The notes: a model not told the origin generated them from the sequence alone. A DNA stretch of 64,000 bases from a virus (IMGVR_UViG_3300037553_000311:28685-92684); one strand, 5' to 3'. Shown: positions 1-51,672, numbered from the stretch's first letter. Program-made: numbers and translations.

Positions 1-372
1 GAGGAATTAGGTCTATCTAAATTACCATTAAAAGATGGTGGTTCTCATGCAGTCAATCAGCGACGTCACTTCATGGATTATACTGTATATAATGCATTCG
101 ATAGTATATCATTATATCTACTAGAGATGAAGAATAATGATCTATTAGCGATGTCTATTCTTGCTGGTATGACTCCAATATCTAAGTTTGCAGCAGCTGG
201 TATCAAAAGTACCAATAGTACTTATCGTCATCATTTAGCTAAAGGTAAGATCTTAGCTAGTGTTAGTAATCTTGATAACTATGTGAAGTTAGATAAGTTA
301 TTTAGTAATTGTGGTGGTCTAGTATTACCTCCGCATAATGTTGAAAATGTAGGGATATGCTTAGATATCTAG
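1..372 (+). CDS. DNA polymerase (family B, phiKZ gp82-like exonuclease-bearing subunit), 3' part; runs in from the window edge
   Basis: Frame 1 is open from base 1 (EELGLSKLPLKDGG...). ExoIII-like YNAFD motif. Colinear with the next ORF, which carries motif A. Confidence 0.75.
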   Translation, partial: EELGLSKLPLKDGGSHAVNQRRHFMDYTVYNAFDSISLYLLEMKNNDLLAMSILAGMTPISKFAAAGIKSTNSTYRHHLAKGKILASVSNLDNYVKLDKLFSNCGGLVLPPHNVENVGICLDI

Positions 373-376
373 TACT

Positions 377-458
377 GTATACTCCTACGTGAAGGTCATA
401 TTTAGCCTATTTTAGATTCACCACTCCCGATATAATAGGTACTGAGAATGGAGTATAT
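377..458 (+). repeat. Degenerate copy of the dispersed CCTACGTGAAGGTCATATTT element, between the two polymerase ORFs
   Basis: cctacgtgaaggtcatattt is identical to copies at about 10060 and 51597, with weaker similarity continuing downstream. Confidence 0.8.
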
Positions 459-479
459 AGATAATTGGAGAATGTCACC

Positions 480-779
480 ATGTCAAATGATACCACTAGT
501 AGTGATAATAAAGTACCGACTACACTTTCTTTATACGTGAGTCAGTGTGATTTTAAATCAGCATACCCATGTATCATGCGTACAGCTAATATATCTAGAG
601 ATACGTTCACAGGAGTAGTATATAGTATCGAAGGTAGAGATAGATCATCAATCATAGATTACTATTCTAACCTGATACATCTAAGAGAAAATGCAGTATA
701 CTTATGTAGTGAGTATCATAATTTCCCAGATTACCTAGAGATGGATGATGTGGTAAGTCAGTACTTATCTACTCAGTGA
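480..779 (+). CDS. DNA polymerase fragment carrying family-B motif A
   Basis: QCDFKSAYP matches DxxSxYP. GGAG RBS at 467-470 precedes the ATG at 480 (ORF track start 465). Confidence 0.75.
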   Translation: MSNDTTSSDNKVPTTLSLYVSQCDFKSAYPCIMRTANISRDTFTGVVYSIEGRDRSSIIDYYSNLIHLRENAVYLCSEYHNFPDYLEMDDVVSQYLSTQ

Positions 780-854: not shown

Positions 855-1514
855 ATGCAGTATGTATTCTTTACAGGACGGAATAGAGTAGGTAAGACAA
901 CATTATCTCTAGCATTACATCAGTATCTAATTAGTAATGGTAGTGATGTTGAAATAGTATCATTTGCAGAGGCTATGAGGTATGAGATAGTTGAATATTA
1001 TGGTATCCCATATGATGTAATATTTGATAAGAGTATAGATAAGAATACATATATGATCACATTAGGTGATTACCCATATCTAAATGAAGCTGTAGAGTTA
1101 CATATATCTAGTGGACTTACTGATAATGAGGATACATTTAAGTCAACCACATATACATTACGAGAACTACTTATAACACATGGTACTCATATCAGACGTA
1201 AAGATGATAATGATTATTGGGTGAAGTTATTTTCACATCATGCCATGGTGCTAGCTGAACGTGGAGTAGATATGATGATCGTAGATGATGCTAGATATCA
1301 GAATGAATTTGATACTATAGCTACATGTGATCTCATATTCTGGTTAGATAATGGATTCACAGGTACGTCAGATCTACCACAAGATAATGTTGTCGCTTGG
1401 TATCGTGCAAATAGAGATAGATGTATCAGCATGGATATACCTATCCCACTGTCACCGAGTAAATGTGATATCATACTACAAGATGTAATTAAACACATAG
1501 GAGATCGTACATGA
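855..1514 (+). CDS. Deoxynucleoside monophosphate kinase
   Basis: P-loop GRNRVGKT; SFAEAMR, LRELL..GT and DDARYQNE motifs typical of phage dNMP kinases. Confidence 0.8.
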   Translation: MQYVFFTGRNRVGKTTLSLALHQYLISNGSDVEIVSFAEAMRYEIVEYYGIPYDVIFDKSIDKNTYMITLGDYPYLNEAVELHISSGLTDNEDTFKSTTYTLRELLITHGTHIRRKDDNDYWVKLFSHHAMVLAERGVDMMIVDDARYQNEFDTIATCDLIFWLDNGFTGTSDLPQDNVVAWYRANRDRCISMDIPIPLSPSKCDIILQDVIKHIGDRT

Positions 1515-2074
1515 TACATAGTAAGACTACGTTAAACTGTCTCTCAATCGATCTTGGATCTAATCTCGGTTGGGTGAAAAGTCGAATCACATTACAACCT
1601 AAGCTCAAGTTAGACGTGACTGAGCATAATACAATAAATCTAAATAAGCTCACTGATATAGAGATGCGGAATGATTTTAATAATGTGTATCATCGGAACC
1701 GTGTCAAGTTGACTATCTTAGAAGACATACTAACAAAACTGACTAGTCGTCTTAAATATGATCTATATATAGTGGAAGATGTATTTGCTAATCCATATAG
1801 AGTAGCAGCTTTTAAATCTCTACTACTGATGATGGATACATTAGAGCGTATAGTTAATATTAAACATGGTAAGAGACTACACACGATAGCACCAATGGCT
1901 ATCAAAAAGATAGTAGCTGATATGGGTAATGCTGATAAGATGGCTGTACAAGAAGCATTACTAGCTAATGAAGATATCACTATCAGGAAGCCAGATCTAT
2001 TAACTGAACATACAAGTGATGCAATCGGTGTAGCGTACGCCTTCAGTAAAAAGTACCTACTCAATAGTATTTGA
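1511..2074 (+). CDS. ruvC: RuvC-like Holliday junction resolvase
   Basis: SIDLGSNLGW, VED, KKIV..MGNADK..V and EHTSDAIGVAY motifs. Confidence 0.85.
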   Translation: MIHSKTTLNCLSIDLGSNLGWVKSRITLQPKLKLDVTEHNTINLNKLTDIEMRNDFNNVYHRNRVKLTILEDILTKLTSRLKYDLYIVEDVFANPYRVAAFKSLLLMMDTLERIVNIKHGKRLHTIAPMAIKKIVADMGNADKMAVQEALLANEDITIRKPDLLTEHTSDAIGVAYAFSKKYLLNSI

Positions 2075-2164
2075 CATATATCACTACTCACTACCGCATA
2101 CGTGGTAGTGAGTAGTGTCTTTGTTTATTCACTCTGAAGTAGTAGTAAAAGATATCTACTCATC

Positions 2165-3604: not shown

Positions 3605-4603
3605 TTATCCCCGATATGCTAATAGTAATACAAATACATCGTCATATAATTCAATCGTATATATGTCATCATGTTTCAATGCCATACGTAATGTGTCAAG
3701 ATCATCAGTATCAAATAGTAGCTTAGTGTTATATGCATCTAACATATCAGCTAGATCTATAGTGAAGTTACCCATTACACTAGCATCTCTAATAGTCCCA
3801 ATGATATTACTCAATCGTACATCATTTAATGTCTTGATACCCATCTTACCAGTATTAAAATCTAACCACATGAGAGCTGAAGATAGATTATTATTACCGA
3901 TACTGATGATATTATCCTCTATCTTATCTAAGAAATCATCACCTCTATTCACATCGATAGCTTTAGTATCATCACTCAATATATCAATATAAGCACCATT
4001 CAAGATATCTACATTAGATAGTTTCTTTATCTCAGAGAATGACCACCCATTTACATAATAAGGACGCATTACTTGCTTAGTAAATAACTTAGTTACTAAT
4101 CTAGATGCAGGAGTACAATCAACAGTATCACTCACTGATGTATATACTTTATCTATAACAAACTTACCATATATACCAGTAGTTACTGGATCATCAGATA
4201 ATTCATCATCTATACCTAAGTATACTAATCTAAAGATCTTGATCTTAGGCGATAGAGTATTATGTCTCACGCTAATCTTACCAGCGTATATATGGTATCC
4301 TGGTCTAAGTGCTATCAATGCATGTTTACCATTCACTTGCTTATTTAACTTATTAAACAAGATAGCATCTAGTAGCTCATCATTACTACCAGAAATGATA
4401 GTACCTAATGATGATACATATTTATCATTACGACCACCTGTCTCCCAGAAGGTGACTTCATTCTTTCTTATATTCACAGGGATATATACTTCCTCACCTA
4501 CTGTGATATACATGCGCATCAGCTCTACTATATCTGGTACAGCGAATGTACTCTTAGCATGAGATGTATCTGTTATGATCTTACTGACTATTATTTTATT
4601 CAT
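3605..4603 (-). CDS. Hypothetical protein
   Basis: 332-aa ORF with a GGAGAG RBS upstream on the minus strand. Confidence 0.75.
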   Translation of the reverse strand: MNKIIVSKIITDTSHAKSTFAVPDIVELMRMYITVGEEVYIPVNIRKNEVTFWETGGRNDKYVSSLGTIISGSNDELLDAILFNKLNKQVNGKHALIALRPGYHIYAGKISVRHNTLSPKIKIFRLVYLGIDDELSDDPVTTGIYGKFVIDKVYTSVSDTVDCTPASRLVTKLFTKQVMRPYYVNGWSFSEIKKLSNVDILNGAYIDILSDDTKAIDVNRGDDFLDKIEDNIISIGNNNLSSALMWLDFNTGKMGIKTLNDVRLSNIIGTIRDASVMGNFTIDLADMLDAYNTKLLFDTDDLDTLRMALKHDDIYTIELYDDVFVLLLAYRG

Positions 4604-4776
4604 TACACTCTCTCCATATGTTACATTTAAAGAAAGTGAGCAACTTAGTTAATCTCACGATACCACATGCGATCCATTTAAGTGGGTGATTCTTATTATG
4701 CGGCATATCGAATCTATCTATTATTATACAGTGTATCATGATATAAATTCCTATAGTATTTATGATGTGTCTATCA

Positions 4777-6330
4777 TTATTTGATACCTAATATTGACTC
4801 AATGTCAATGTGCTCTATCTTAGATGTAGTAGGATTAGAGTGTATATTTCTAACAAATGCTGGGTTACTATGGACGTCATCTGGTATACCTATAATAGGA
4901 TCTTCAAATAGGTAAGCACAGAACTTGTCTACTTCTGGAGTATCATCAACATATCTATGTTTACCCCATTGCATAGTTAGCCAAGATCTACCAGCATCAT
5001 CGAGTTCAATGTTCATATAAGCTACGAAATCAAATTCTCTCCCTATACCAATACTACCAGCAGTATGTCGTTCACCGAATTGCTTTACTGGATGTGGGAC
5101 ACCTGATCCTACGATATCACTAGCACCTCTATTTAATTGTGCGGCAGTAAAGAACGTAGTACCGACTGCTTTAAAGAAGTTACATGTTCGATTACATAGC
5201 TGATTTATCAATACATCATTACCAGAGCGACTAAATTTACCATCACCTTTCTTCATTAGCAGTAAGTAATCTATGATGCAAGCTACTATATTGTATCCTG
5301 AGTTAGTATACTTTTCATGTAACCTAACTAAGTCATCATAACCAAATTCATCAGGTAAATATCTCTCAATCACTATAGTGAATTCGCCACGATTAAAGTA
5401 ATCATAGATGGCATTTACTACATCTTCATCTGTCATATCACCTGATGGATTATTACCAGTGATAGACTTATACATCTGATTGAACATTTTCATCATACTC
5501 ATGTATCCGATATCTTCAAATGATATAATCAGGATCACTGGCTGTTTCCCAGGTATCTTAGGTGGAGTACTATAATCATTTATCCACTTAGCTAAAGACC
5601 TCAGCATACTACTCTTGTAATTATGTTGCCTAGCACAGAATAATACACTCTCACCTAAATAGAAACCACCTTTACTACCACACATCTTATTGAGACCTTG
5701 TAGTCCAGTCTTCAATATGTAATCTACATGTCTATCTTTATACATAGAGACAGCATCTTTGATACTAGACTTCTTACTAAAGTCAATCTTCTCTACAGGA
5801 CCACCTTTACCTATGAAACTATCGATATCCATGATAGTATTCTTAAAGTCACCTATGAGGTCTTTTATCTCTGTAATCTTATCAGTCTGATCTTCTACGT
5901 TATAAGCTAGTTTACATTCTCTAATGCTCCCATATAACTTACTGATATATGAGTTACTCTTATGCCATATAACTATGTTGTTGAGCTTCTCAGATAGGTT
6001 AGCTAATGTAGTAGCATTTGTCTTAGTCTTCAGTAATCCACGGATAGTTTCCTTTATCACCTTATCTCGTCTGAATACCTTATTACTTAAGTATCGAGTC
6101 ATCAGGTTACTGATATCTGACTTGTTTTCTTCTAGTAGTAATCCCTGGGAGATAACATCTTTGCATAACGATATATATAGATTACAGTAATTGATATTAT
6201 TAGTACTCAATGATGATGCGCTATCGACGTATAATTCAAATAGCTCATCAGCTAGATGCTTAGTTTTTACAGTATTGATATGCATTAGTAGTCTTAGTAA
6301 GTCATAAAATAAAGTAGCATCGATGTGCAT
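4777..6330 (-). CDS. dnaB: DnaB-like replicative helicase (phiKZ gp118-like)
   Basis: TGLQGLNKM, Walker A ARQHNYKS, IIDYL, FTAAQL and GKHR. Divergent from the capsid operon, as in phiKZ-like phages. Confidence 0.85.
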   Translation of the reverse strand: MHIDATLFYDLLRLLMHINTVKTKHLADELFELYVDSASSLSTNNINYCNLYISLCKDVISQGLLLEENKSDISNLMTRYLSNKVFRRDKVIKETIRGLLKTKTNATTLANLSEKLNNIVIWHKSNSYISKLYGSIRECKLAYNVEDQTDKITEIKDLIGDFKNTIMDIDSFIGKGGPVEKIDFSKKSSIKDAVSMYKDRHVDYILKTGLQGLNKMCGSKGGFYLGESVLFCARQHNYKSSMLRSLAKWINDYSTPPKIPGKQPVILIISFEDIGYMSMMKMFNQMYKSITGNNPSGDMTDEDVVNAIYDYFNRGEFTIVIERYLPDEFGYDDLVRLHEKYTNSGYNIVACIIDYLLLMKKGDGKFSRSGNDVLINQLCNRTCNFFKAVGTTFFTAAQLNRGASDIVGSGVPHPVKQFGERHTAGSIGIGREFDFVAYMNIELDDAGRSWLTMQWGKHRYVDDTPEVDKFCAYLFEDPIIGIPDDVHSNPAFVRNIHSNPTTSKIEHIDIESILGIK

Positions 6331-9979: not shown

Positions 9980-10135
9980 TATGCACTTTGAAACTCAAAT
10001 CGTTATAGAACCGCATGTAGTGATTTGAAAATAGGCTAAAAAGAGCTTCCACGTATATCCCTACGTGAAGGTCATATTTGGGCATATTTGGATTTACTAC
10101 GTACGGTTCTATAGTGGGTGAAAATGGTGTATTTG
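9980..10135. repeat. Imperfect long inverted repeat made of two TACGTG-element arms
   Basis: Left arm tatagaaccgcatgtagt...cttccacgta is an imperfect reverse complement of right arm tacgtgaagg...tacggttctata. The right arm is nearly identical to 51588-51672. Confidence 0.75.
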
Positions 10136-10518: not shown

Positions 10519-11655
10519 ATGAAAGTGAGTAATGAAGTAATGAATATCGATGGTAATGATGGATGTGATTTTGATGAGTTCTACGCAGTAGCTACTGACT
10601 CTAGTGGTAATACCATATGTGTTGGCGTTATCAAAACAGAAGGAGCTGGTGGTGATGATGCATTAGTAGTCAAGTATGATACTAATCTTAATGTACTAGC
10701 TAGGAAAATATATGGTGGTATTAATTTGGATGAGTTCAGTGGGGTAGTTATAGATTCCAATAACAACATCATATGTGTTGGGAATACTTATAGTGAAGAT
10801 AGTGGTATTGATGAAGCACTAGTAGTCAAGTTCGATCCTAACCTTGACATAATTGCTAAGAAAGTATACGGTGGTAGTGGTATTGATAGGTTCTATGAAG
10901 TAGTTACTGATGATAATGATAATATCATATGTGTTGGACGTACTGTTTCAGAAGGATCTGGTGATTATGATGCACTAGTAGTAAAGTTTGATAATGACCT
11001 TAACATACTAGCTAAGAGGATATATGATGGAGCTGGTAATTACCGATTCTATGAAGTAGCTACTGACTCTAATGGTAATATCATATGTGCTGGACGTACT
11101 CAAACAGAAGGAGCTGATTCTGATGTTGCTCTAGTAGTCAAGTACGATCCTAACCTTGACATAATTGCTAAGAAAATATATGATGGTAGTGGTGCTGATG
11201 CATTTTATACAGTAGCTACTGACTCTAATGATAATATCATATGTATTGGATGGACTGTCTCAGAAGAAACTGATTCTGATGAAGCACTAGTAGTCAAGTT
11301 CGATACTAACCTTAACATATTGACTAAGAAGATATATGATGGTATTGATTGGTTCAATGGAGTAGCTATAGACTCTAATGATAATATCATATGTGTTGGA
11401 CGTACTGCTTCAGGTAGTACGTCAGGAACTGGTAACCATGACACATTAGTAGTCAAGTTCGATCCTAACCTTGACATAATTACTAAGAAATTACATAATG
11501 ATGCAATTATTGATAGGTTCTATGAAGTAGTTACTGATGATAATGATAATATTATCTGTGTTGGACGTACTGTTTCAGAAGGATCTGGTAGTTTCGATGC
11601 ATCAGTAGTCAAATTTGATCCTAATCTTAATATGCTAGTTAATAAGATACAGTAG
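10519..11655 (+). CDS. Beta-propeller repeat protein (paralog family)
   Basis: Seven about 55-aa repeats YGGxGxDxFxxVATDSNxNIICVGxTxSEGxxxxDALVVKFD. Confidence 0.85.
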   Translation: MKVSNEVMNIDGNDGCDFDEFYAVATDSSGNTICVGVIKTEGAGGDDALVVKYDTNLNVLARKIYGGINLDEFSGVVIDSNNNIICVGNTYSEDSGIDEALVVKFDPNLDIIAKKVYGGSGIDRFYEVVTDDNDNIICVGRTVSEGSGDYDALVVKFDNDLNILAKRIYDGAGNYRFYEVATDSNGNIICAGRTQTEGADSDVALVVKYDPNLDIIAKKIYDGSGADAFYTVATDSNDNIICIGWTVSEETDSDEALVVKFDTNLNILTKKIYDGIDWFNGVAIDSNDNIICVGRTASGSTSGTGNHDTLVVKFDPNLDIITKKLHNDAIIDRFYEVVTDDNDNIICVGRTVSEGSGSFDASVVKFDPNLNMLVNKIQ

Positions 11656-11672
11656 TTGGATGTGATCTAAAT

Positions 11673-14443: not shown

Positions 14444-14676
14444 TACCTCCCCCCAACTTATCTAGTAGTATTAGATAAGTTGGGGGTTACTACTTTATTA
14501 TTTTTTTATAATAACTATTCATAGCTACTAGACTAGGTTATATAGTGAAATTATTTATCATAGAACCTCATAATCTTATAGATCAGGTAGTATATCGAGT
14601 AGTGTCTGATATGCTATCTAATCACTAGATCAGGTGTCTGTTTTTTGTAATCTAATAATACACGGAGAATGTAATC

Positions 14677-16038: not shown

Positions 16039-17898
16039 ATGTTCATATTGCAGAATAATATCCCACTGACTAAAGTTGGGTCAGTATATAAGTATAATTT
16101 AGGATTTGAGACATTAGTAGTAACTGATCCATCATTAGTGATTGATAGATTGAACTACAGAATAGATCGGACTATCGGTCTGAGTCGTAGTTATGATCAC
16201 ATGATGAACCTTAATATATCAGCTAAGGTATCTATCACATCCGATCCATTTGAATATACATGTACTAGTGATACTACCAGATTATTAGCTATCGAACAGA
16301 TAGTCTCTCATGATGGTGAGATCATAGATATCGCATCTAACGTAGGTACTGTAGAGTATCACACATATAGTATCAAGTCGAATGATATATATGGTAGTGA
16401 AATAGCTGGAGCACTTATCAATGTCACTGTACCAGAAGACGCTACAGATATCATATTGACAGTGACATCTACTCTGACTAATGATACAGGTACTACTGAA
16501 CATGTCACATATCTATCTACAGGTGAGGTAGCTACTGGTACTGGAGGTACTGGGGCTACTGGAGCTACTGGAGCTACTGGAGCCGATGGGAGAGATGGAA
16601 TAGATGGAATAGATGGAATAGATGGAATAGATGGAGTCGATGGGAGAGATGGAGTCGATGGTGCTGATGGTGCTGATGGAATAGATGGAATAGGTGGAGT
16701 GGGAGCATTACCACCGACTGCACCATTACTAGATATCCCATTCAAGATTAATATGGATACTTCCCAAGGTAATATAGTAACTAATTATATCAGAAATTCA
16801 CCAGCTACTCACATTGACCGGTATGGTATGATGATAAGTAGTGATGTAAATACACCAAGATTTACTAAAAATGGGATGATGCGTGAAGGTGTCGGTACTA
16901 ACTATTTTCTTAATAGTAACTCACTTAACGCATATACACTAACTAACGCTACTCAGTCAATCGGCTATGATAGTGTATTAGCTATAGATGTAACTAACGT
17001 AGATAAAGACGGACAATCACCTTGGACATTAGATGCTGATACTACATTACCTATCAGTGATCATACTGATGTGACATATAGTGTCAGATTACGTACAAGT
17101 GATCCATTATCTGTAGAGATGCAGATATTAGATGATGCCGGTGTAGTACTAGCTTCATCTATAATCACTACTAGTGATACGACCGAATTATATACAGTAT
17201 CAGCAGATATATCTAATATATCATCAGGTACTGTATCAGTGAAGCTCATTCCAGATAGTAATTCATCAGTATCTCGATTAGTAGTAGCTACATCTCAAGT
17301 GGAACCATTACCATTTGTATCTAGTTTCATACTTACTACTGATACACACATGACTCGTGAAATGGAATCGATCGTTATCAGTTATGATGATAATTTCCCT
17401 AGTAATGATCATGGTGTCACTGTACTCCTCGATGTATATATTAGAGGTACGTTACCATCACTAGATTCATGCTTCACATCAGGTAGTCTATCTATGTATA
17501 TATCAGATCATGGTAGTAGTGTTCCTGTAGCTAAAGCTGCCATATCGGAAACTGATAGTACAGGTACATATCCTATTAATAATAAACTTAGAATGGGAGT
17601 AGTATATGATCCAGATAATAATCTACTACAGTTATATGTAGATGGTGTAATTGTCGATACTACAAACATCACAGGTGATACTGATGTACCATTAGGTTCT
17701 GGGATGTCTCTTAGTGATTTCTTTACTCAGGTCTATGATGGTAGTTATACTGATGATACATCTCCAGTACTATTACAGGGTAATGTTGACTTTCAATCAG
17801 CATTACTTATGATAGGTTCAGAGTTTACATTTATGGAATTTAGTAACTTAAGAGTAATATCTGAAGTATGTAGTGAAGTACAGATGATGAATTTATAA
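16039..17898 (+). CDS. Collagen-repeat tail fibre or head fibre-like protein with carbohydrate-binding/LamG-like C-terminus
   Basis: G-X-Y repeats at about 16535-16705; PRF....G...EG..TN and QVE....SSFI.T...TR fibre motifs; LQLYVDG. Confidence 0.7.
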   Translation: MFILQNNIPLTKVGSVYKYNLGFETLVVTDPSLVIDRLNYRIDRTIGLSRSYDHMMNLNISAKVSITSDPFEYTCTSDTTRLLAIEQIVSHDGEIIDIASNVGTVEYHTYSIKSNDIYGSEIAGALINVTVPEDATDIILTVTSTLTNDTGTTEHVTYLSTGEVATGTGGTGATGATGATGADGRDGIDGIDGIDGIDGVDGRDGVDGADGADGIDGIGGVGALPPTAPLLDIPFKINMDTSQGNIVTNYIRNSPATHIDRYGMMISSDVNTPRFTKNGMMREGVGTNYFLNSNSLNAYTLTNATQSIGYDSVLAIDVTNVDKDGQSPWTLDADTTLPISDHTDVTYSVRLRTSDPLSVEMQILDDAGVVLASSIITTSDTTELYTVSADISNISSGTVSVKLIPDSNSSVSRLVVATSQVEPLPFVSSFILTTDTHMTREMESIVISYDDNFPSNDHGVTVLLDVYIRGTLPSLDSCFTSGSLSMYISDHGSSVPVAKAAISETDSTGTYPINNKLRMGVVYDPDNNLLQLYVDGVIVDTTNITGDTDVPLGSGMSLSDFFTQVYDGSYTDDTSPVLLQGNVDFQSALLMIGSEFTFMEFSNLRVISEVCSEVQMMNL

Positions 17899-28462: not shown

Positions 28463-29578
28463 ATGAATATGAAAGTAAGTAATGAAGTAATTATTACCGA
28501 TGGATGTGATTTCGATAAAGCAGCTATAGACACCGCTGGTAATATCATCTGCATTGGCACTGTCAGATCGGAAGAATCTGATACTAACTTTCCACTAATA
28601 GTTAAGTATGATGTCAATGGTGATATCATACTTAAGAAGATGTATTATGATATTAATTTAGATAAGATCCGTGGAGTAACCACTGATTCTAATGGAGACA
28701 TCATCTGCATTGGCACTGTCAGATCGGAAGAATCTGATACTAAATATCCATTAATAGTTAAGTTTGATACTAATCTTAATGTACTAGCTAAGATGATATG
28801 TGATACTGGTGATGATTGGTTCAATAAAGTTACCACAGATGCTAATGACAATATCATCTTAGCTGGATGTGCTCTCTCAGAAGAAATTAGTGGTATTGAT
28901 GCATTAGTGGTTAAGTATGACCCTAATCTCAATATACTAGCTAGAAAAACATATGGCGATGGTGGTGAGGAATTTAACCAAGTAACCACTGATTCTAGTG
29001 GTAATGTCATATGTGTTGGATGGACAAATTCAGAAAGAATTGGTACTAATGCCGATGCATTAGTGGTCAAATTTGACAATGACCTTAACATAATTACTAG
29101 TAATACATATGATGATACCGATATTGATTGGTTCTATGGTGTAGCTATAGATTCCAATAACAACATCATATGTGTTGGACATACTAGCTCAGGTAGTACG
29201 TCAGGAGCTGATTGTTATGATGCATTAGTGGTTAAGTATGACACTAATCTTAACATGCTAGCTGATACGATATATAGTGGTATTGGTAATGATTGGTTCG
29301 ATGCAGTAATCACTGATTCTAGTGGTAATGTCATATGTATTGGATGTACTGATTCAGGTAGTACGTCAGCAGCTGGTAATTATGACATGCTAGTGTCGAA
29401 GTATGACGCTGATCTCAATGTATTAGATAGTAATACATATGGTGATACTAGTAGTGATGAATTATATGCAGTAGCTACTAATCATAACGGTGATATAGTA
29501 TGTGTTGGAGATACATTATCAGATAGTACGTCAGGACCTAGTAATTATGTTATACGAGTAGTAAAGTTCACTAGCTGA
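28463..29578 (+). CDS. Beta-propeller repeat protein (paralog family)
   Basis: Seven about 53-aa repeats. Confidence 0.85.
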   Translation: MNMKVSNEVIITDGCDFDKAAIDTAGNIICIGTVRSEESDTNFPLIVKYDVNGDIILKKMYYDINLDKIRGVTTDSNGDIICIGTVRSEESDTKYPLIVKFDTNLNVLAKMICDTGDDWFNKVTTDANDNIILAGCALSEEISGIDALVVKYDPNLNILARKTYGDGGEEFNQVTTDSSGNVICVGWTNSERIGTNADALVVKFDNDLNIITSNTYDDTDIDWFYGVAIDSNNNIICVGHTSSGSTSGADCYDALVVKYDTNLNMLADTIYSGIGNDWFDAVITDSSGNVICIGCTDSGSTSAAGNYDMLVSKYDADLNVLDSNTYGDTSSDELYAVATNHNGDIVCVGDTLSDSTSGPSNYVIRVVKFTS

Positions 29579-29600
29579 GATCATACATGATCTAAACATT

Positions 29601-29646
29601 CCCATAGCATACCGATATCAGGTATGCTATGGGTTTATTATTTTTT
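29601..29646 (+). terminator. CATAGCATACC hairpin plus T tract
   Basis: Loop gatatca. Confidence 0.8.
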
Positions 29647-29715
29647 ATGCACTCTGAACATGAGTAGATATCTTTACTTACTCTCAAGAGTGAATCCATC
29701 TAATATACTACTATT

Positions 29716-29738
29716 TCAAGTATATATCATTATAGTAG
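29716..29738 (+). promoter_or_regulatory. Putative early promoter
   Basis: tcaagtatatatcattatagtag. Confidence 0.65.
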
Positions 29739-29900
29739 AAGGTATCAGCTACTACTTGATACCTACCACTGATCTTCGATTAGTAGTAAGTATCAGATAC
29801 TACTTTGATGTACATCTACTAATCTAGCGAATATATAGCGTATAGAATAATCTATACGTACACTAAACGTCAGATATATGACACGATACCTTAGGAGGGT

Positions 29901-30605
29901 ATGAATATGGAAGTAAGTAATGAAGTAATGAATATATATGGTAATGATGGAGATCAATTCGATAAAGCAGCTATAGACACCGCTGGTAATATCATCTGCA
30001 TTGGACATGTTAAATCAGAAGGATCTGATACTAAATATCCATTAGTAGTTAAGTATGATACTAATCTTAATGTACTATTTAAGAAGATGTATTATGATAT
30101 TAATTTGGATGAGTTCCGTGGAGTAACTACGGATTCTAGTGGTAATATCATCTGCATTGGATGGACTGTCTCAGAAGAAACTGATTCTGATGTTGCAGTG
30201 GTAGTCAAGTTCGATACTAATCTTAACATAATCGCTAAGAGAATATATGGTGATAGTGGTGGTGATTGGTTCAATGGAGTAGCTACTGACTCTAGTGGTA
30301 ATGTCATCTGTGTTGGACATACTACCCCAGGTAGTACGTCAGGAGCTGGTAGTTATGATGCATTAGTAGTCAAGTTCGATACTAATCTTAACATAATCGC
30401 TAAGAGAATATATAGTGATAGTGGAGATAGTGGTGATGAATTTGACCAAGTAACTACTGACTCTAATGATAATGTCATCTGTGTTGGATGGACTGATTCA
30501 GAAGGAGCTGGTAGTTCTGAATATCCTAATCGTGTAGATGCATTAATAGTGAAGTATGATAGTGATCTTGATATACATTGGACGTACTCATTCAGAAGTA
30601 TCTAG
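29901..30605 (+). CDS. Beta-propeller repeat protein, four repeats
   Basis: Same repeat family. Confidence 0.8.
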   Translation: MNMEVSNEVMNIYGNDGDQFDKAAIDTAGNIICIGHVKSEGSDTKYPLVVKYDTNLNVLFKKMYYDINLDEFRGVTTDSSGNIICIGWTVSEETDSDVAVVVKFDTNLNIIAKRIYGDSGGDWFNGVATDSSGNVICVGHTTPGSTSGAGSYDALVVKFDTNLNIIAKRIYSDSGDSGDEFDQVTTDSNDNVICVGWTDSEGAGSSEYPNRVDALIVKYDSDLDIHWTYSFRSI

Positions 30606-30631
30606 TAGTGATGATACATGATCTAAACATA

Positions 30632-34870: not shown

Positions 34871-36124
34871 ATGAATATGAAAGTGAGTAATGAAGTAATG
34901 AATATCTATGGTAACGATGGAGATCAATTCGATAAAGTAGCGATAGATTCTAGTGGTAATGTCATCTGTGCTGGTACTATCGGATCAGAAGGGACTGGTA
35001 GTCATGTGGGTATATTAATAATCAAGTATGATATTAACCTTAATGTACTAGTTAGAAAGGTATATGGTGGTAGTGGTGGTGATAGGTTCGGACAAGTAAC
35101 TACGGACTCTAATAATAACGTCATCTGTGTTGGATATACACTATCAGGAAGAGCTGGTGATTATGATACACTAGTAGTGAAGTTTGATAGTGATCTTAAT
35201 CTACTAGCTAGGAAGACATATGGTGGTATTATTTTGGATGAGTTCAGTGCAGTAGCTACTGACTCTAATGATAATGTCATCTGTGCTGGGTATACTACTA
35301 GTGAAGATAATTGTTATCATGATGCATTAGTAGTTAAGTTCAGCGGTACTGATCTTAGTATACTAGCTAGGAAAGTATATGGTGGAACTGTCATTGATAT
35401 GTTCCGTGGAGTAACTACTGATACTAATGGTAATATTATCTGTACTGGATATACTCGTAGTGAAGGTAGTGGTTATGATGATACATTAGTAGTTAAGTAT
35501 GATAGTAATCTTAATGTACTAGCTAGGAAATCATACGGTGGTTATGTTTTTGACTACTTCTATGGAGTAGCTACTGATACTAATAATGATATCATATGTG
35601 TTGGGTATACTACTGGTGAAGGTAGTGGTAATGATGATGCATTAGTAGTTAAGTTCAGTGGTAGTGATCTTAGTATACTAGCTAAGAAAGTATACGGTGG
35701 TACAATTAATGACCGCTTCCGTGGAGTAGCTACTGATAGTGATGATAATATCATATGTACTGGACATACTACTTCGGAAGGAGATGATAATGGTAATGTC
35801 ATATTAGTAGTCAAGTTTGATAGTGACCTTAATGTATTAGCTAGGAAGACATATGGTGGGATTGACGATGATGATCACTACCTTGGAGTAACTATAGATC
35901 CTAATGGTAATATCATATATGTTGGACGTACTATTTCAGAAGAAACTAATGATTATACTCCCCTAGTAGTGAAGTATTATACTCCCCTAGTAGTGAAGTT
36001 CCAACGCAGATTATATCAAGTAGCTACTGATACTAATGGTAATGTCATCTGTACTGATGTTAACGATACCGATGAATCTGATAGTCATGAGGATGCGGTA
36101 GTAGTCAATCATGATGAGTTGTAG
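34871..36124 (+). CDS. Beta-propeller repeat protein (paralog family)
   Basis: Seven repeats plus a degenerate eighth. Confidence 0.85.
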   Translation: MNMKVSNEVMNIYGNDGDQFDKVAIDSSGNVICAGTIGSEGTGSHVGILIIKYDINLNVLVRKVYGGSGGDRFGQVTTDSNNNVICVGYTLSGRAGDYDTLVVKFDSDLNLLARKTYGGIILDEFSAVATDSNDNVICAGYTTSEDNCYHDALVVKFSGTDLSILARKVYGGTVIDMFRGVTTDTNGNIICTGYTRSEGSGYDDTLVVKYDSNLNVLARKSYGGYVFDYFYGVATDTNNDIICVGYTTGEGSGNDDALVVKFSGSDLSILAKKVYGGTINDRFRGVATDSDDNIICTGHTTSEGDDNGNVILVVKFDSDLNVLARKTYGGIDDDDHYLGVTIDPNGNIIYVGRTISEETNDYTPLVVKYYTPLVVKFQRRLYQVATDTNGNVICTDVNDTDESDSHEDAVVVNHDEL

Positions 36125-36373
36125 ATCAGAAGGTCTAAGTAAGTCAAGCATATATCTTATATAGATGAACTCTATACTAAACTCTCATAACGCTCCCTAC
36201 ATCGGGAGCGTTATGAGGGAGTGTGTGATGATGTTTTTTATTAGCTGATGATCTATAATCATAAGAGAGCTTCTCTTTTTTATGGATGCACTTTCAGCAT
36301 GAGTAGATATCTTTTACTACTACTCAAAGTGCATATATTTTTAGTAGTGGAATCAGATGGTAAATGTAGATAT
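36105..36373 (+). repeat. About 270-bp direct repeat, copy 2
   Basis: Near-identical to 34367-34634. Confidence 0.9.
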
Positions 36374-36469
36374 ATCTGATCAGATTAGTTAGATATCAGC
36401 TAAAAATAAAGTGCTAAAATAGCACCTCTCCTACCCCTTATAAAACCACGGGTGACAGACCCCCTATTT

Positions 36470-36560
36470 CTACCTGTATATCCCTACGTGACCCCCCATA
36501 TTTGCTATATTTCGTGTTTCCTACGTGCAGTAATATAGGCGTTCAGAAATGGGTATTTCA
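36470..36560 (+). repeat. Diverged TACGTG element
   Basis: gtatatccctacgtga....catatttg..atattt...ctacgt pattern shared with 10051 and 51588. Confidence 0.65.
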
Positions 36561-36684
36561 GTAAGTATGAAACATATCTGAAATTAGTGATAATGTGCTA
36601 CATTCGATACATGATTCTTACACACTCTGAGCATGAGCGAACATCTTTACCTACTATCAAGAGTGCTATCGGTAGCTTACTATT

Positions 36685-36707
36685 TCAGGTATATATCACT
36701 ATAGTAG
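36685..36707 (+). promoter_or_regulatory. Putative early promoter
   Basis: tcaggtatatatcactatagtag. Confidence 0.7.
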
Positions 36708-36868
36708 AGATGCATCAGATAATACTTGATGTACCTCTACTGATCTAGCGATCAGTAGTATACGTAGCTAAGTATGACTCTTAGATATCTAATCACTAGA
36801 TCAGGTAGCATATCAATTAGTATCTGATGTGCTACCTGATTATCAATTCAATATAGGAGGGTAGTAAG

Positions 36869-37351
36869 ATGAGTAAATTAGATAGTAGTAATAAGGTTGA
36901 AACAGTGTACGGTGGTAGTGGTCATGATTTCTTCAATGGAATAACCACTAATATTAACAATGATATAATCTGCGTTGGAACTACTAATAGTGAAGGTACT
37001 GGTGGTCGCGATATATTAGTAGTCAAGTTTGATCCTAACCTTAATGTACTAGTTAGGAATGTATATGGTAGTACTAAATCTGATATATTATATGAAGTAG
37101 CTACTGACTCTAACGATGATATCATATGTGTTGGAACTACTAATAGTGAAGGTACTGGTATCAATACACTACTAGTTAAGTTCAGTGGTAGTGATCTTAG
37201 TATCATATCTAAGAAGGTATATGATGGTACTAGTGCTGATTATTTCTATGGAGTAGCTACTGATGCTAATAATGATATCATCTGTGTTGGGATTACTGCT
37301 AGTGAAGAAGCTGGTAATAATGATGTATTAGTAGTTAAGAGTGTTTCTTAG
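36869..37351 (+). CDS. Beta-propeller repeat protein, three repeats
   Basis: Same repeat family; AGGAGGG RBS. Confidence 0.8.
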   Translation: MSKLDSSNKVETVYGGSGHDFFNGITTNINNDIICVGTTNSEGTGGRDILVVKFDPNLNVLVRNVYGSTKSDILYEVATDSNDDIICVGTTNSEGTGINTLLVKFSGSDLSIISKKVYDGTSADYFYGVATDANNDIICVGITASEEAGNNDVLVVKSVS

Positions 37352-37385
37352 CTACATAATTAATCCAATATAGGAGGGTAGTAAG

Positions 37386-38522
37386 ATGAGTAAAGTAGAT
37401 AGTAGTAAAATAAGTAGTAGTCGTATGATTGAAACGATATATGGTGGCACTGGTTATGTTTTCTATGGAATAACTACTGACTCTAACGATGATATCGTAT
37501 GTATTGCGAATACTAATAGTGGAGAAGGTGACGACATTAACACAGTAACAGTAGTTAAGTTTAGTGGTAGTGATCTTAGTGTCCTAGCTGAGTATGTATA
37601 CGGTAGTTCTGATCGCAATTTCCTCTATGGAGTAGCTACTGACTCTAATGATGATATCATATGTGCTGGGTTTACTGTTAGAGATGGAATTGATAGTAAT
37701 GATGCATTAGTAGTTAAGTTCAGTGGTAGCGATCTTAGTATATTAGCTGAGCAGGTACACAGTGTTACTAGTCGTGATTACTTTTATGACATAGTTACTG
37801 ATCCTGATGGTAATATCATCTGCGTTGGGAATACTTATAGTGAAAGTAGTGTTACCACTGATGCATTAGTAGTTAAGTTCAGCGGTAGTGATCTTAGTGT
37901 CCTAGCTGAGCAGGTATACAGTAATACTGATCATGATAGCTTCCATGGAGTAGCTACTAATCATGATGGCGATATCGTGTGTGTAGGATATACTGCTAGT
38001 GAAGGAGGTATTGGTATGTCTGCGTTAGTAGTTAAGTTCAGTGGTACCGATCTCAGTATACTAGCTAGGAAAGTATACGGTGATACTTGTTACGATTGTT
38101 TCCGAGGAGTAGTTACTGATCTTAATAATGATATCGTGTGTATTGGTCATACTCGTAATGAAGTATCTGACAGTTATGATGGATTAGTAGTTAAGTTCAG
38201 TGGTAGTGATCTTAGTATACTAGCTGAGCAGGTATATAGTGGTACTGATAATGATAATTTTAACGGAGTAGTACTTGACTCTAAAGGTGATATAATGTGC
38301 GTCGGATGGATTATTAGTGAAGAATCTAATAGTCCCGATGCATTACTAGTTACGTTCGATGGTAGTGATCTTAGCATACTATCTGATCAAGTGCTAATCG
38401 GAGAATTCTTCTATGCAGTAGCTACTAATCATAACGGTGATATAGTATGTGTTGGATCGACTTCTAGTGAAGAATCTAGTAGTGCTAATGCATTAGTAGT
38501 GAAGTATGTTAACGTGACTTAG
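37386..38522 (+). CDS. Beta-propeller repeat protein, seven repeats
   Basis: Same repeat family; RBS/start block duplicated from 36869. Confidence 0.85.
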   Translation: MSKVDSSKISSSRMIETIYGGTGYVFYGITTDSNDDIVCIANTNSGEGDDINTVTVVKFSGSDLSVLAEYVYGSSDRNFLYGVATDSNDDIICAGFTVRDGIDSNDALVVKFSGSDLSILAEQVHSVTSRDYFYDIVTDPDGNIICVGNTYSESSVTTDALVVKFSGSDLSVLAEQVYSNTDHDSFHGVATNHDGDIVCVGYTASEGGIGMSALVVKFSGTDLSILARKVYGDTCYDCFRGVVTDLNNDIVCIGHTRNEVSDSYDGLVVKFSGSDLSILAEQVYSGTDNDNFNGVVLDSKGDIMCVGWIISEESNSPDALLVTFDGSDLSILSDQVLIGEFFYAVATNHNGDIVCVGSTSSEESSSANALVVKYVNVT

Positions 38523-40324: not shown

Positions 40325-41680
40325 ATGGATGTGAATGAGAATAATGAACGTGGAAGTATGAGTGCACTTACTAGTGTATACGGTGGTACTAGTCATGACG
40401 TCTTCGAAGGAGTAGCTATCGATACTAATAATGATATCATCTGCGTCGGGTATACTGCTAGTGAGGGTAGTGGAGATGATGATGCATTAGTAGTTAAGTT
40501 CAGTGGTAGCGATCTCAGTATACTAGCTAGGAAAGTATACGGTGGTATTGGTACTGACTACTTCTGGGGAGTAGCTATCGATACTAATAATGATATCATC
40601 TGCGCAGGGTATACTTATAGTGAAGGTAGTGGTAGTCCATCATACAGCAGTGCTTTAGTAGTTAAGTTCAGCGGTAGTGATCTTAGTATACTAGCTAGGA
40701 AAGTATACGGTGGAGCTGACACTGACTACTTCAATGGAGTAGTTACTGATGATAATAATGATATCATATGTGCTGGGAATACTTATAGTGAAGGTAGTGG
40801 CGGTGCCGATGCATTAGTAGTTAAGTTCAGTGGTAGCGATCTTAGTATACTAGCTAAGAAGATATACGGCGACATTAGTACTGACTACTTCTATGGAGTA
40901 GCTATCGATACTAATAATAACATCATATGTACTGGGTATACCACTAGTGAGGGTAGTGGAAATGTTGATACATTAGTAGTTAAGTTCAGTGGTAGCGATC
41001 TTAGTATACTAGCTAGGAAAGTATATGGTGGAGATGACACTGACTACTTCTATGGAGTAGCTACTGATGCTAATAATGATATCGTCTGTGTCGGATATAC
41101 CACTAGTGAGGGTAGTGGGGATGTTGATGCTTTAGTAGTTAAGTTCAGTGGTATTGATCTTAGTATACTATCTAGTAAGGTATACGGTGGTACTGAGGAT
41201 GACTACTTCTTCGGAGTAGTAGTCGATACTAATAATAACATCATCTGTGCAGGGTATACTAAAAGTGAAGGTAGTGGTGGTACCGATATTTTAGTAGTTA
41301 AGTTCAGTGGTAGCGATCTTAGTATACTAGCTAAGAAAGTATACGGTGGTACTGGTGATGATATCTTATATGGAGTAGCTACCGATACTAATAATAACAT
41401 CATATGTACTGGGAATACATATAGTGAAGGTAGTGGTAGTCCGATATACAGCAGTGCATTAGTAGTTAAGTTACCTAGCGACATACCTGCTGGTACTTTC
41501 GTAGGTCCAGTATTCACTAACTTAACTCTTCAAGATAGTAACCTAACCTTAGCTGATAGTATTTTAACATTAGCTGATAGTAACCTAACCTTAGCAGATA
41601 GTAACCTAACCTTAGCTGATAGTACATTAACCTTAACTGATAGTGATCTTACTCAAGAAGTCGACACTATGGAACTGTAG
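40325..41680 (+). CDS. Beta-propeller repeat protein with C-terminal LADSNLT heptapeptide repeats
   Basis: Seven blade repeats plus a 21-bp tandem repeat tail. Confidence 0.85.
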   Translation: MDVNENNERGSMSALTSVYGGTSHDVFEGVAIDTNNDIICVGYTASEGSGDDDALVVKFSGSDLSILARKVYGGIGTDYFWGVAIDTNNDIICAGYTYSEGSGSPSYSSALVVKFSGSDLSILARKVYGGADTDYFNGVVTDDNNDIICAGNTYSEGSGGADALVVKFSGSDLSILAKKIYGDISTDYFYGVAIDTNNNIICTGYTTSEGSGNVDTLVVKFSGSDLSILARKVYGGDDTDYFYGVATDANNDIVCVGYTTSEGSGDVDALVVKFSGIDLSILSSKVYGGTEDDYFFGVVVDTNNNIICAGYTKSEGSGGTDILVVKFSGSDLSILAKKVYGGTGDDILYGVATDTNNNIICTGNTYSEGSGSPIYSSALVVKLPSDIPAGTFVGPVFTNLTLQDSNLTLADSILTLADSNLTLADSNLTLADSTLTLTDSDLTQEVDTMEL

Positions 41681-41730
41681 TAATACATACATCCAACTAG
41701 TGTATGTAATCTAATATAGGAGGATTTACA

Positions 41731-43095
41731 ATGGATGTGAATGAGAATAATGAACGTGGAAGTATGAGTGTACTTACTAGTGTATACGGTGGTACTAATC
41801 ATGACGTCTTCGAAGGAGTAGTTACTGACTCTAAAGGTGATATCATCTGTGTCGGGTATACTAGTAGTGAAGGTAGTGGAGATGTTGATGCATTAGTAGT
41901 TAAGTTCAGTGGTAGCGATCTTAGTATACTAGCTAGGAAAGTATACGGTGGCACTGGCACTGACTACTTCAATGGAGTAGCTACTGACTCTAATAATGAT
42001 ATCATCTGTATTGGGATTACTGGTAGTGGTAGTGGTAGTCCGATATACAGCAGTGCATTAGTAGTTAAGTTCAGTGGTAGCGATCTCAGTATACTAACTA
42101 AGAAAGTATACGATGATGATGTACATGACCGCTTCTATGGAGTAGCTACTGACTCTAATAATAATAATATCATCTGTACTGGGATTACTGGTAGTGAAGA
42201 TAGTAGTGGTAATAATACATTAGTAGTTAAGTTCAGTGGTAATGATCTTAGTATACTAGCTAGGAAAGTATATGGTGGTACTAGTACCGACTACTTCTAT
42301 GGAGTAGCTACCGATACTAATAATAACATCATATGTGCTGGGAATACTTATAGTGAAGGCGGTGGCAATAATGATGCATTAGTAGTTAAGTTCAGTGGTA
42401 GCGATCTTAGCATACTAGCTAGGAAAGTATACGGTGGCACTGGCACTGACCGCTTCTATGGAGTAGCTACCGATACTAGTGATGATATCGTCTGTGTTGG
42501 GATTACTAATAGTGAAGGTAGTGGTAGTCCATCATATAACAGTGCATTAGTAGTTAAGTTCAGTGGTAATGATCTTAGTATACTAGCTAGAAAAGTATAC
42601 GGTGGAGCTAGTGATGACTACTTCCGTGGAGTAACTACTGATGCTAATAATGATATCATCTGTGTCGGGTATACTAAAAGAGAAGGTAGTGATAGTCCTA
42701 CATACAGAAGTACATTAGTAGTTAAGTTCAGTGGTAGTGATCTTATTATACTAGCTAGTAAAGTATATGGTGGAGCTGGTACTGATATATTCCATGGAGT
42801 AGTTACTAATACTAACGGTGATATCGTGTGTGTTGGGAATACTTATAGTGAAGGCGGTGGTGGTACTGATGCGTTGGTAGTTAAGTTACCTAGTGATATA
42901 CCTACTGGTACATTCACCAGTACCATACGCACTAACTCAACTCTCCAAGATAGTAACCTAACCTTAGCAGATAGCACTTTAACATTAGCTGATAGTAACC
43001 TAACCTTAGCAGATAATGATCTTACATTAACTGATAGTACATTAACCTTAGCAGATAGTGATCTTACTCAAGAATCTGATACTATGGAACTGTAG
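41731..43095 (+). CDS. Beta-propeller repeat protein with C-terminal LADSNLT repeats (tandem duplicate)
   Basis: Same N- and C-termini as 40325-41680. Confidence 0.85.
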   Translation: MDVNENNERGSMSVLTSVYGGTNHDVFEGVVTDSKGDIICVGYTSSEGSGDVDALVVKFSGSDLSILARKVYGGTGTDYFNGVATDSNNDIICIGITGSGSGSPIYSSALVVKFSGSDLSILTKKVYDDDVHDRFYGVATDSNNNNIICTGITGSEDSSGNNTLVVKFSGNDLSILARKVYGGTSTDYFYGVATDTNNNIICAGNTYSEGGGNNDALVVKFSGSDLSILARKVYGGTGTDRFYGVATDTSDDIVCVGITNSEGSGSPSYNSALVVKFSGNDLSILARKVYGGASDDYFRGVTTDANNDIICVGYTKREGSDSPTYRSTLVVKFSGSDLIILASKVYGGAGTDIFHGVVTNTNGDIVCVGNTYSEGGGGTDALVVKLPSDIPTGTFTSTIRTNSTLQDSNLTLADSTLTLADSNLTLADNDLTLTDSTLTLADSDLTQESDTMEL

Positions 43096-43143
43096 TAATG
43101 TACACCTAACTAGTGTATGTAATCTAATATAGGAGGCTTTACA

Positions 43144-43788
43144 ATGGATGTGAACGAGACTAATGAACGTGGAAACATAGCTGAGAAAGTATATGGTGGT
43201 ACTGGTATTGATAGGTTCTATGAGGTAGTTACCGACACTAATAATGACATCATCTGTGTCGGGTATACTGCTAGTGAAGATAGTAATTGTTGGTATGCAT
43301 TAGTAGTTAAGTTTAGTGGTAGTGATTTGAGTATACTAGCTAGGAAGGTATACGGTGGTACTGGTACCGAATACTTCCATGGAGTTACTACTGATACTAA
43401 TAATGATATCATCTGCGCTGGGATTACTGGTAGTGATGATGCATTAGTAGTTAAGTTCAGCGGTACTGATCTTAGTATATTATCTAGTAAGGTATACGGT
43501 GGTAGTGGTGATGACTGCTTCAATGGAGTAACTACTGACTCTAATAATGATATCATATGCACTGGGATTACTGATAGTGAAGGTAGTGGTGGTGCTGATG
43601 CATTAGTAGTTAAGTTCAGCGGTACTGATCTTAGTATACTATCTAGTAAGGTATACGGTGGTAGTGGTGATGACTGCTTCAATGGAGTAACTACTGACTC
43701 TAATAATGATACCGTCTGTGTCGGGTACACTAGTAGTGATGGTGATGATGCATTAGTAGTTAAGTTTAGTGGTAATGATCCTACCTGA
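43144..43788 (+). CDS. Beta-propeller repeat protein, four repeats
   Basis: Third MDVNE-start copy, truncated. Confidence 0.8.
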   Translation: MDVNETNERGNIAEKVYGGTGIDRFYEVVTDTNNDIICVGYTASEDSNCWYALVVKFSGSDLSILARKVYGGTGTEYFHGVTTDTNNDIICAGITGSDDALVVKFSGTDLSILSSKVYGGSGDDCFNGVTTDSNNDIICTGITDSEGSGGADALVVKFSGTDLSILSSKVYGGSGDDCFNGVTTDSNNDTVCVGYTSSDGDDALVVKFSGNDPT

Positions 43789-51587: not shown

Positions 51588-51672
51588 ACGTATATCCCTA
51601 CGTGAAGGTCATATTTGAGCATATTTGGATTTACTACGTACGGTTCTATAGTGGGTGAAAATGGTGTATTTG
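51588..51672 (+). repeat. TACGTG element
   Basis: About 85 bp, near-identical to 10051-10135. Confidence 0.9.

Follow-up and report, generated by a model that had tools for sequence, protein, structure and literature searches.

An apparently ancestral second split in the phiKZ gp82-type DNA polymerase subunit of uncultured jumbo phages, with a dispersed repeat at the junction in one lineage

Results and Discussion

The gp82-type subunit (DNAP-N) of the family-B DNA polymerase of an uncultured phiKZ-like phage is encoded in two separate open reading frames, and we consider it probable (roughly 0.8) that this is a true gene in pieces, split in an ancestor, with pieces that assemble with the second polymerase subunit (DNAP-C) and a dispersed repeat that reached the junction later. 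The window, meaning the whole stretch of DNA that we analysed, is the last 64 kb of the 92,684-bp IMG/VR contig IMGVR_UViG_3300037553_000311. The completeness of this contig is estimated at ~32% (CheckV), and the phage genome is therefore jumbo-sized. An original prediction made from the window alone had attributed the split to insertion of the repeat, or had supposed that the halves are rejoined at the RNA level.

Gene order at the junction

The gene anatomy could be read directly from the DNA (Table 1). The upstream frame, ORF A, lies in frame 1 and is open from upstream of the window; as had been seen for the exonuclease-bearing ORF, it stops at position 372, ending in ..VENVGICLDI with a TAG at 370-372. 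The whole of ORF A is 470 aa long from MSIKK (L005:4960-6372), and its start lies 1,040 nt 5' of the window (G000:C1:27644). Motif A had been noticed in a separate ORF in another frame with its own ribosome-binding site, and it is found in exactly this setting in ORF B. The noted resemblance of the ORF B start to that of a RecA gene was also recovered: the 18-mer GGAGAATGTCACCATGTC, which includes the GGAG, recurs with 2 mismatches (16/18) at 14664, where a UvsX/RecA-like ORF starts; the number of matches expected by chance is 0.02. The similarity between these two gene starts is confined to the 18 nt, with nothing found beyond them. One transcript, which would end at the hairpin at 2082-2117, probably carries ORF A and ORF B together with the dNMP kinase and RuvC-like genes. 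In a scan of positions 1-2300 there was no terminator-like site in the gap, and a sigma-70 promoter scan of the same region gave fewer sites than shuffled sequences and was uninformative.

Table 1. Coordinates of the features discussed in the text. Positions are those of the window unless a locus is named.
Feature	Position	Strand	Basis or remark
3' end of ORF A, NTD and 3'-5' exonuclease piece of gp82-like DNAP-N	1..372	+	ORF call, phrog_3011, homologs
Untranslated intercistronic gap, 107 nt	373..479	+	stops in all three frames, 9 stops
TACGTG copy, diverged (the repeat is ~83 nt, dispersed and intergenic)	377..459	+	BLAST, nhmmer
Shine-Dalgarno-like GGAG, 9 nt 5' of the ORF B ATG	467..470	+	inside 18-mer GGAGAATGTCACCATGTC
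ORF B, 99-aa palm fragment with motif A, frame 3, MSNDTT..	480..779	+	phrog_3011, gp82 and RB69 alignments
dNMP kinase-like gene	855..1514	+	also 3' of the motif-A gene in relative L012
RuvC-like resolvase gene, last in the apparent operon	1511..2074	+	profile match
Terminator-like hairpin and T-run	2082..2117	+	sole such site in 1-2300
TACGTG copy, well kept	10053..10135	+	long intergenic region, 5' of an early-promoter-like site
TACGTG copy, second sub-type	36476..36558	+	nhmmer
TACGTG copy, well kept	51590..51672	+	between a terminator hairpin and an early-promoter-like site
TCAGGTATATATTACTATAGTAG sites	2147-2187, 13079, 14035, 26069, 28308, 30728, 34666, 39612, 40224, 43913, 44695, 49858, 51730, 56857, 61450
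Coding repeats of ~156-159 nt	10560-11660, 28490-30620, 34900-38520, 40330-43750, 53880-54840
RF00028 introns, one per locus	L099:1722-1948; L040:3971-4264; L136:4877-5188; L033:3805-4175; L082:3854-4201
RF00028 introns, two per locus	L079:3758-3991, 4103-4388; L054:3860-4211, 4418-4789
Junction in L012 (= L096)			motif-A gene 3 nt after stop, TGA gtt ATG
Junction in L094			motif-A gene 11 nt after stop
Junction in L093			motif-A gene 14 nt after stop
Junction in L095			motif-A gene 14 nt after stop; ORF A ends ..GIFLDI*
Junction in L097			motif-A gene overlaps ORF A by 4 nt
Junction in L013			motif-A gene 1,941 nt after stop; endonuclease-like gene between

Two reading frames colinear with one gp82-like subunit

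The colinearity of the two ORFs with a single protein was seen directly in alignments. On the 576 positions of phrog_3011 ("DNA polymerase"), the part of ORF A within the window matches 370-445 (E = 1.3e-8) and ORF B matches 482-563 (E = 1.1e-9); on the 638 aa of phiKZ gp82, ORF A matches residues 13-484 (E = 2e-34) and ORF B residues 552-634 (E = 9e-6). ORF B D24 aligns with gp82 D562, which is the catalytic residue of motif A (PMC13648687). A weak alignment of ORF B with RB69 gp43 (residues 405-471) also spans motif A. Searching with ORF A (tblastn) returned 299 phage records, mostly from phiKZ-like phages of Pseudomonas, Erwinia, Salmonella and Vibrio. Annotated homologs consist of one single CDS of 575-595 aa, and three contiguous ones were used for alignment. 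Both ORFs were thus found to be colinear on single proteins of 575-638 aa. According to BLASTP and MAFFT alignments with the three contiguous homologs and gp82, the break lies ~17-21 residues N-terminal of the motif A aspartate, and pairwise and multiple alignments agree that about four homolog residues are replaced there by CLDI-stop ... MSNDTTSSDN.

In a preprint by Basu et al. [quoted passage not shown] The premise of the original prediction, that phiKZ divides its PolB between two genes while keeping the gp82-like subunit contiguous, is supported by the cultured relatives and by that preprint.

The phage collection held no near-identical DNA, an IMG/VR scan with a single protein returned three distant loci only, and a word-based protein search with ORF B at near lengths returned ORF B itself only. 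The exact proteins are on record, the 99-aa one from 6 contigs and the 470/481-aa one from 3 + 3 (NCBI, JGI, ENA, Logan).

Conservation of the break in relatives

A protein search with ORF A found 32 clusters of 447-471 aa (38-59% identity) and 15 fused clusters of 539-598 aa (at most 38% identity). In the alignment, the long forms continue into motif A, and the ends of all short forms lie no more than a few residues from ..GVGIxLxI; 31 relatives stop at the identical residue. In a maximum-likelihood tree, 31 short forms (39-59% identity) make up one clade (SH-aLRT 99), within which ORF A of the window and a 59%-identical relative (P0005) form one branch.

We read the junction DNA of six split-clade relatives, namely L012 (the same sequence as L096), L094, L093, L095, L097 and L013 (Table 1). 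Their motif-A genes encode 87-108 aa, usually start M.LETGLS and are preceded by SD-like motifs, and the frames of ORF A and ORF B differ in four of the six. The TACGTG element is absent from all six junctions. Because these junctions lack the element and 31 relatives share the same stop residue, the break is older than the element, and by these comparisons the split is old and inherited.

This conservation bears on whether the split might be an artefact or a sign of decay, that is, an assembly or sequencing error or a dying polymerase gene. The contig is metagenomic, and ORF B has a Q in a nearly invariant Asp column, but several assemblies and sources contain the identical proteins, and a 107-nt gap with 9 stops could not result from a single-base error. 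Assembly error is unlikely, given that the break is conserved and that both exact proteins have been recorded more than once, while decay is hard to reconcile with a break kept across the clade, with catalytic residues that are invariant in both pieces, or with the polymerase being a core replication gene. We therefore hold an artefact or a dying gene to be very improbable.

We give just as little credence to the idea that the halves are rejoined, whether by a small self-splicing intron, by a bypass of the T4 gene 60 type or by split-intein trans-splicing. It draws on the group I introns that interrupt the same gene near motif A in other phiKZ-like contigs, and on a gap that begins directly after the stop codon, as in gene 60. 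However, the search that finds nine introns elsewhere in this gene gives no Rfam/RF00028 match in the 64-kb window, and neither a tRNA nor any Rfam match was found in the gap (373-479), which at 107 nt is much too short for a group I intron and whose predicted fold is no more stable than those of shuffled sequences (z = -0.35). In relatives, the same site is occupied by a 1.9-kb gene cassette or by as little as 3-14 nt of spacer, and with a spacer of 3 nt in L012 (TGA gtt ATG) there is nothing left to splice. Bypass is also contradicted by the last sense codon, ATC, for which there are no landing codons in 373-540, and by the ordinary stop, SD and start that relatives use; ORF B has its own SD and ATG. 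For an intein, the 4 and ~10 non-homologous residues flanking the break leave no room for N- and C-intein halves. To the extent that these sequences can tell, they exclude splicing, bypass and inteins; RNA processing, one of the two explanations first offered for the gap, is not borne out.

The TACGTG element in the gap

Seven copies of the TACGTG element were found by nhmmer on the 92,684-bp contig (E = 5e-23 to 2e-6), and the degenerate copy that had been noticed in the gap is among them. Aligned without gaps to the copies at 10053-10135 and 51590-51672, this copy (377-459) has 58/83 and 57/83 identities, with 26/28 in the 5' part; its BLAST E-values against these two copies are 1e-5 and 9e-7. 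Two copies of the family are identical to each other at 82/83 positions, and the gap copy is the most diverged, with 70% identity to the nearest. None of the six other copies interrupts a gene; all are located in long intergenic stretches. Two well-kept ones, c2 and c3, are situated between a gene end and an early-promoter-like GTATATATTAC, with a terminator hairpin 5' of c3. A partial inverted copy (10002-10055, nhmmer E = 6e-4) lies on the minus strand and is oriented towards the full copy at 10053-10135. No signal of RNA structure was detected in the element (fold z from -0.4 to +2.3), nor any Rfam or tRNA match, and a search for its 16-mer in IMG/VR gave one match without further similarity, which we took as chance.

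The original prediction held that insertion of this repeat into a contiguous gp82-like gene made the split in this phage, an explanation that we now regard as quite unlikely. The element does occupy most of the gap (377-459 of 373-479), and the N-terminal residues of ORF B that are specific to this lineage, together with a start context common to another gene, are as expected of incoming sequence. Against this, the stop of ORF A is at its ancestral position (..GICLDI* here, ..GIFLDI* in L095), the other copies of the element are all intergenic, and 31 relatives have the same break, with no element in the six sequenced junctions. The claim that the repeat caused the split was not borne out: homologs are split at this site without the element, an observation that had been named beforehand as speaking against it. 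As every relative examined has the break but lacks the element, insertion into an already existing junction is most likely, and we infer that the element is a passenger there.

It may alternatively be the scar of a former junction cassette like that of L013, or it may provide ORF B and the replication genes that follow with a signal, for example an internal promoter or a binding site. We view such a non-neutral role, which is compatible with an ancestral split, as possible but doubtful. The 3' half of the element contains TTCACCA-N12-TAGGT, which has two sites on the whole contig, at 417-440 and 799-822; these lie before ORF B and the dNMP kinase gene, 39 nt and 32 nt upstream, respectively, and may represent a promoter or operator of replication genes. 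The position of c2 and c3 between gene ends and early-promoter-like sites is in keeping with a signal, but two occurrences cannot define a promoter class, the early-promoter motif is absent from the gap, and the gap copy is the most diverged of its family. In favor of a scar, the L013 junction holds a 1.9-kb insertion with a T5orf172/GIY-YIG-like ORF, and the same two states are known from phages 44RR and 25, which are related to T4 (PMC2988022). Separately, we observed that the site at 799-822 resembles a half copy of the TACGTG element.

Catalytic residues, fold and standalone motif-A proteins

For the exonuclease, we used the acidic residues of gp82 Exo I-III (D151, E153, D251 and D452) as the reference. 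The corresponding residues of ORF A, D141 and E143 in Exo I, D261 in Exo II and D381 in Exo III, are invariant (31 and 25 sequences), and so are N257 of Exo II and Y377 of Exo III among its homologs. ORF B carries the motif A signature DxxSxYP in ..QCDFKSAYP.., with D24 as the catalytic Asp (equivalent to gp82 D562 and RB69 D411), and D24, Y29 and P30 are invariant in 20 sequences, both split and fused. Both pieces therefore look functional from their sequences. At the first Asp of a DxD pair, which is kept in at least 90% of homologs, ORF B has Q instead, and its N terminus carries ~10 residues more than those of relatives; the polymerase of this particular lineage may be impaired, given the Q at the DxD column and the unusual N-terminal extension.

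The AlphaFold model of a fused relative (P0037; the ORF B row of L094 was left out of the structure prediction) has a mean pLDDT of 87.6, and its best structural matches are RB69 gp43 chains (E ~1e-16). The model is confident to about residue 430 and falls below a pLDDT of 50 at 451-472, while the site equivalent to the split comes after residue 457 and motif A is at 472-474. Since the confident fold ends before the split-equivalent site, the break is predicted to sit in the linker between the end of the NTD/exonuclease fold and the palm. In RB69, we take the palm to begin near residue 383, with D411 within motif A.

Among 1.84 billion cluster representatives, 629 proteins matched a profile built from the ORF B region at E <= 1e-3. 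The best 150 of these 629 include 74 fused proteins (at least 480 aa), 27 standalone ones (at most 116 aa), 16 of 117-180 aa, many of which start just before a conserved GGAVL strand, 16 that begin within motif A (MYPS..), as expected of exon 2 in intron-containing genes, and 17 fragments or other forms; these classes were set by length and start position and may contain gene-calling artefacts and contig-end fragments. Judged by such counts, standalone mini-subunits are common.

The third gene and the proposed model

The third polymerase gene was not found on this contig, which is ~32% of the genome: PF00136 and phiKZ gp50, gp54 and gp75 gave no match. The contig of L013 (G001), a member of the split clade, encodes both pieces and, >100 kb away, a gp50-like ORF of 753 aa that contains a DTDS motif, so there are three polymerase genes in that phage. 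The earlier proposal of a three-piece polymerase with a 99-aa motif-A subunit is thus upheld as to the two cistrons of the gp82-like subunit and the three genes of L013, while in the phage studied here DNAP-C would lie outside the contig.

In the model that we favor, the linker joining the NTD/exonuclease to the first palm strand would have gained a stop followed by a restart in an ancestor of many uncultured jumbo phages, which make up a large clade. From then on, the subunit would have been made as two polypeptides: ORF A of ~450-470 aa, with the NTD and the proofreading exonuclease, and ORF B of ~87-108 aa, with the motif A aspartate and the first helices of the palm insertion. We infer that these two and a gp50-type DNAP-C form a non-covalent family-B polymerase core of three polypeptides. 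Non-covalent assembly of this enzyme has precedent, as gp82 and gp50 are stable and active at 1:1 (PMC13648687). Most clade members would have kept abutting cistrons, with spacers of -4 to 14 nt and an SD that lies within the end of ORF A or directly after it, an arrangement that makes coupled translation probable. In this lineage, a copy of the dispersed repeat would later have widened the junction to 107 nt, and ORF B, now longer by 10 residues at its N terminus, would be initiated from a GGAG-N9-ATG of its own.

We only tentatively entertain the broader idea that the clade has an obligate three-polypeptide PolB core with a ~90-residue motif A mini-subunit, a separable exonuclease and a recurrent breakpoint in the linker. 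If this were true, recurrent breaks in the linker would suggest that the exonuclease and polymerase modules are exchangeable or independently regulated.

Other breaks in the same linker

The main site is not the only place where this region is interrupted. L098, which is sister to the split clade, has a split too, but ~30 residues earlier: at L098:4749-4775 (Ga0114934_10001026), ..KFIA is followed by TAATAA, AGGAAAGGAG, 8 nt and ATG, and the second piece begins MKKKKNESENSGGAVL. Standalone proteins of 117-147 aa in the search of representatives share the start place of this second piece. Nine RF00028 matches to group I introns (51-99 bits) lie in or adjoin motif A of the gp82-like gene in other phiKZ-like metagenomic contigs (Table 1). 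The 1.9-kb insertion of L013 (L013:3847-5655) contains a 180-aa Cys-rich ORF and a 415-aa ORF, the latter matching phrog_681 ("endonuclease", E = 4e-7) and, weakly, GIY-YIG/T5orf172 (16.7 bits, against a Pfam cut-off of 20). With two split sites, introns, an endonuclease-like cassette and a dispersed repeat, the linker is by all appearances a recurrent breakpoint, interrupted independently in several ways.

Other features of the window

Apart from the polymerase genes, the window holds 15 listed copies of TCAGGTATATATTACTATAGTAG (family D17), often followed by repeated hairpins. TCAGGTATATATTACTATAGTAG contains TATATTAC, which we take to be the core of phiKZ early promoters. Coding repeats of ~156-159 nt constitute a very large family, with up to 58 copies of a 73-nt core in many separate genes. 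At 16551-16721 there are tandem 9-nt units, TGGAGCTAC / TGGAATAGA, in 14 overlapping registers; they are coding and read Gly-X-Y-like. A 435-aa ORF at 2244-3551 matches ThyX (PF02511) at residues 16-200 only (E = 4e-8) and has no PHROG match; 435 aa is about twice the usual size of ThyX.

Implications

An enzyme that is already divided between genes appears to have been recut at the border between its proofreading module and its catalytic palm, and to have been kept so in more than 30 divergent lineages. This would provide a natural test of how small an active-site piece of PolB can work in trans, and the split could be used to recognize jumbo phages of this large, uncultured clade. The junction is also a clear case of a repeat or mobile element residing in a junction of other origin, which bears on how "insertion-split" genes in metagenomes are read. 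For annotation, ORFs of 87-108 aa are currently unnamed in these phages, and the 450-aa ORFs resemble truncated polymerases.

Comparison with known systems

The enzyme belongs to the same family as phiKZ gp82 and gp50, is colinear with gp82 and has kept its exonuclease residues and motif A Asp, but phiKZ has a single gp82 chain where this phage has pieces of 470 and 99 aa. The preprint on phiKZ describes only a two-gene split within the palm insertion, and its text does not mention a further one (PMC13648687). Group I introns interrupt phage polymerase genes (RF00028) in the same gene region, whereas the window has none. Family-B polymerases in separate genes, in two pieces, also occur in archaea, as PolB1/PolB2 of Methanothermobacter and the split-intein PolB of Nanoarchaeum; their break positions differ from the one described here, and the Nanoarchaeum enzyme is rejoined by an intein, for which there is no room in our junction.

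The nrdA gene of Aeh1 is split by mobE, and its pieces reassemble non-covalently, helped by interaction domains derived from the endonuclease (PMC3045599, PMC2988022). It resembles our case as the gene of an essential enzyme fragmented at the site of a mobile element, but it encodes a ribonucleotide reductase, its spacer is the endonuclease gene itself, and we saw no such interaction domains here.

By analogy, gene 43A/43B of the Aeromonas phages 44RR and 25, which are related to T4, comes closest as a functional precedent. In these phages, PolB is encoded by adjacent cistrons whose products co-purify and are active; one phage has untranslated intercistronic sequence where a relative has a seg homing-endonuclease gene, and invasion of a pre-split gene by an endonuclease was already considered (PMC2988022). 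The likeness to our phages lies in adjacent, colinear cistrons, the second with its own RBS, and in the 107-nt gap and, tentatively, the endonuclease-like cassette of L013, which would parallel the two states in the Aeromonas phages. The break in 43A/43B, the subject of work by Petrov, Ratnayaka and Karam in 2010, is reportedly at a different position from the one here. The two cases also differ in that the Aeromonas genes belong to another PolB lineage and show a first split, whereas here a second one is set atop the N/C split of chimalliviruses, and in that the spacer here carries a dispersed repeat found genome-wide. The literature that we searched contained no description of a three-piece chimallivirus polymerase or of introns in phiKZ-like polymerases. 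What is new, judging from the genes compared, is a second cut in a chimallivirus-type polymerase that leaves a ~90-aa polypeptide with the catalytic aspartate and appears to be fixed in a large uncultured clade.
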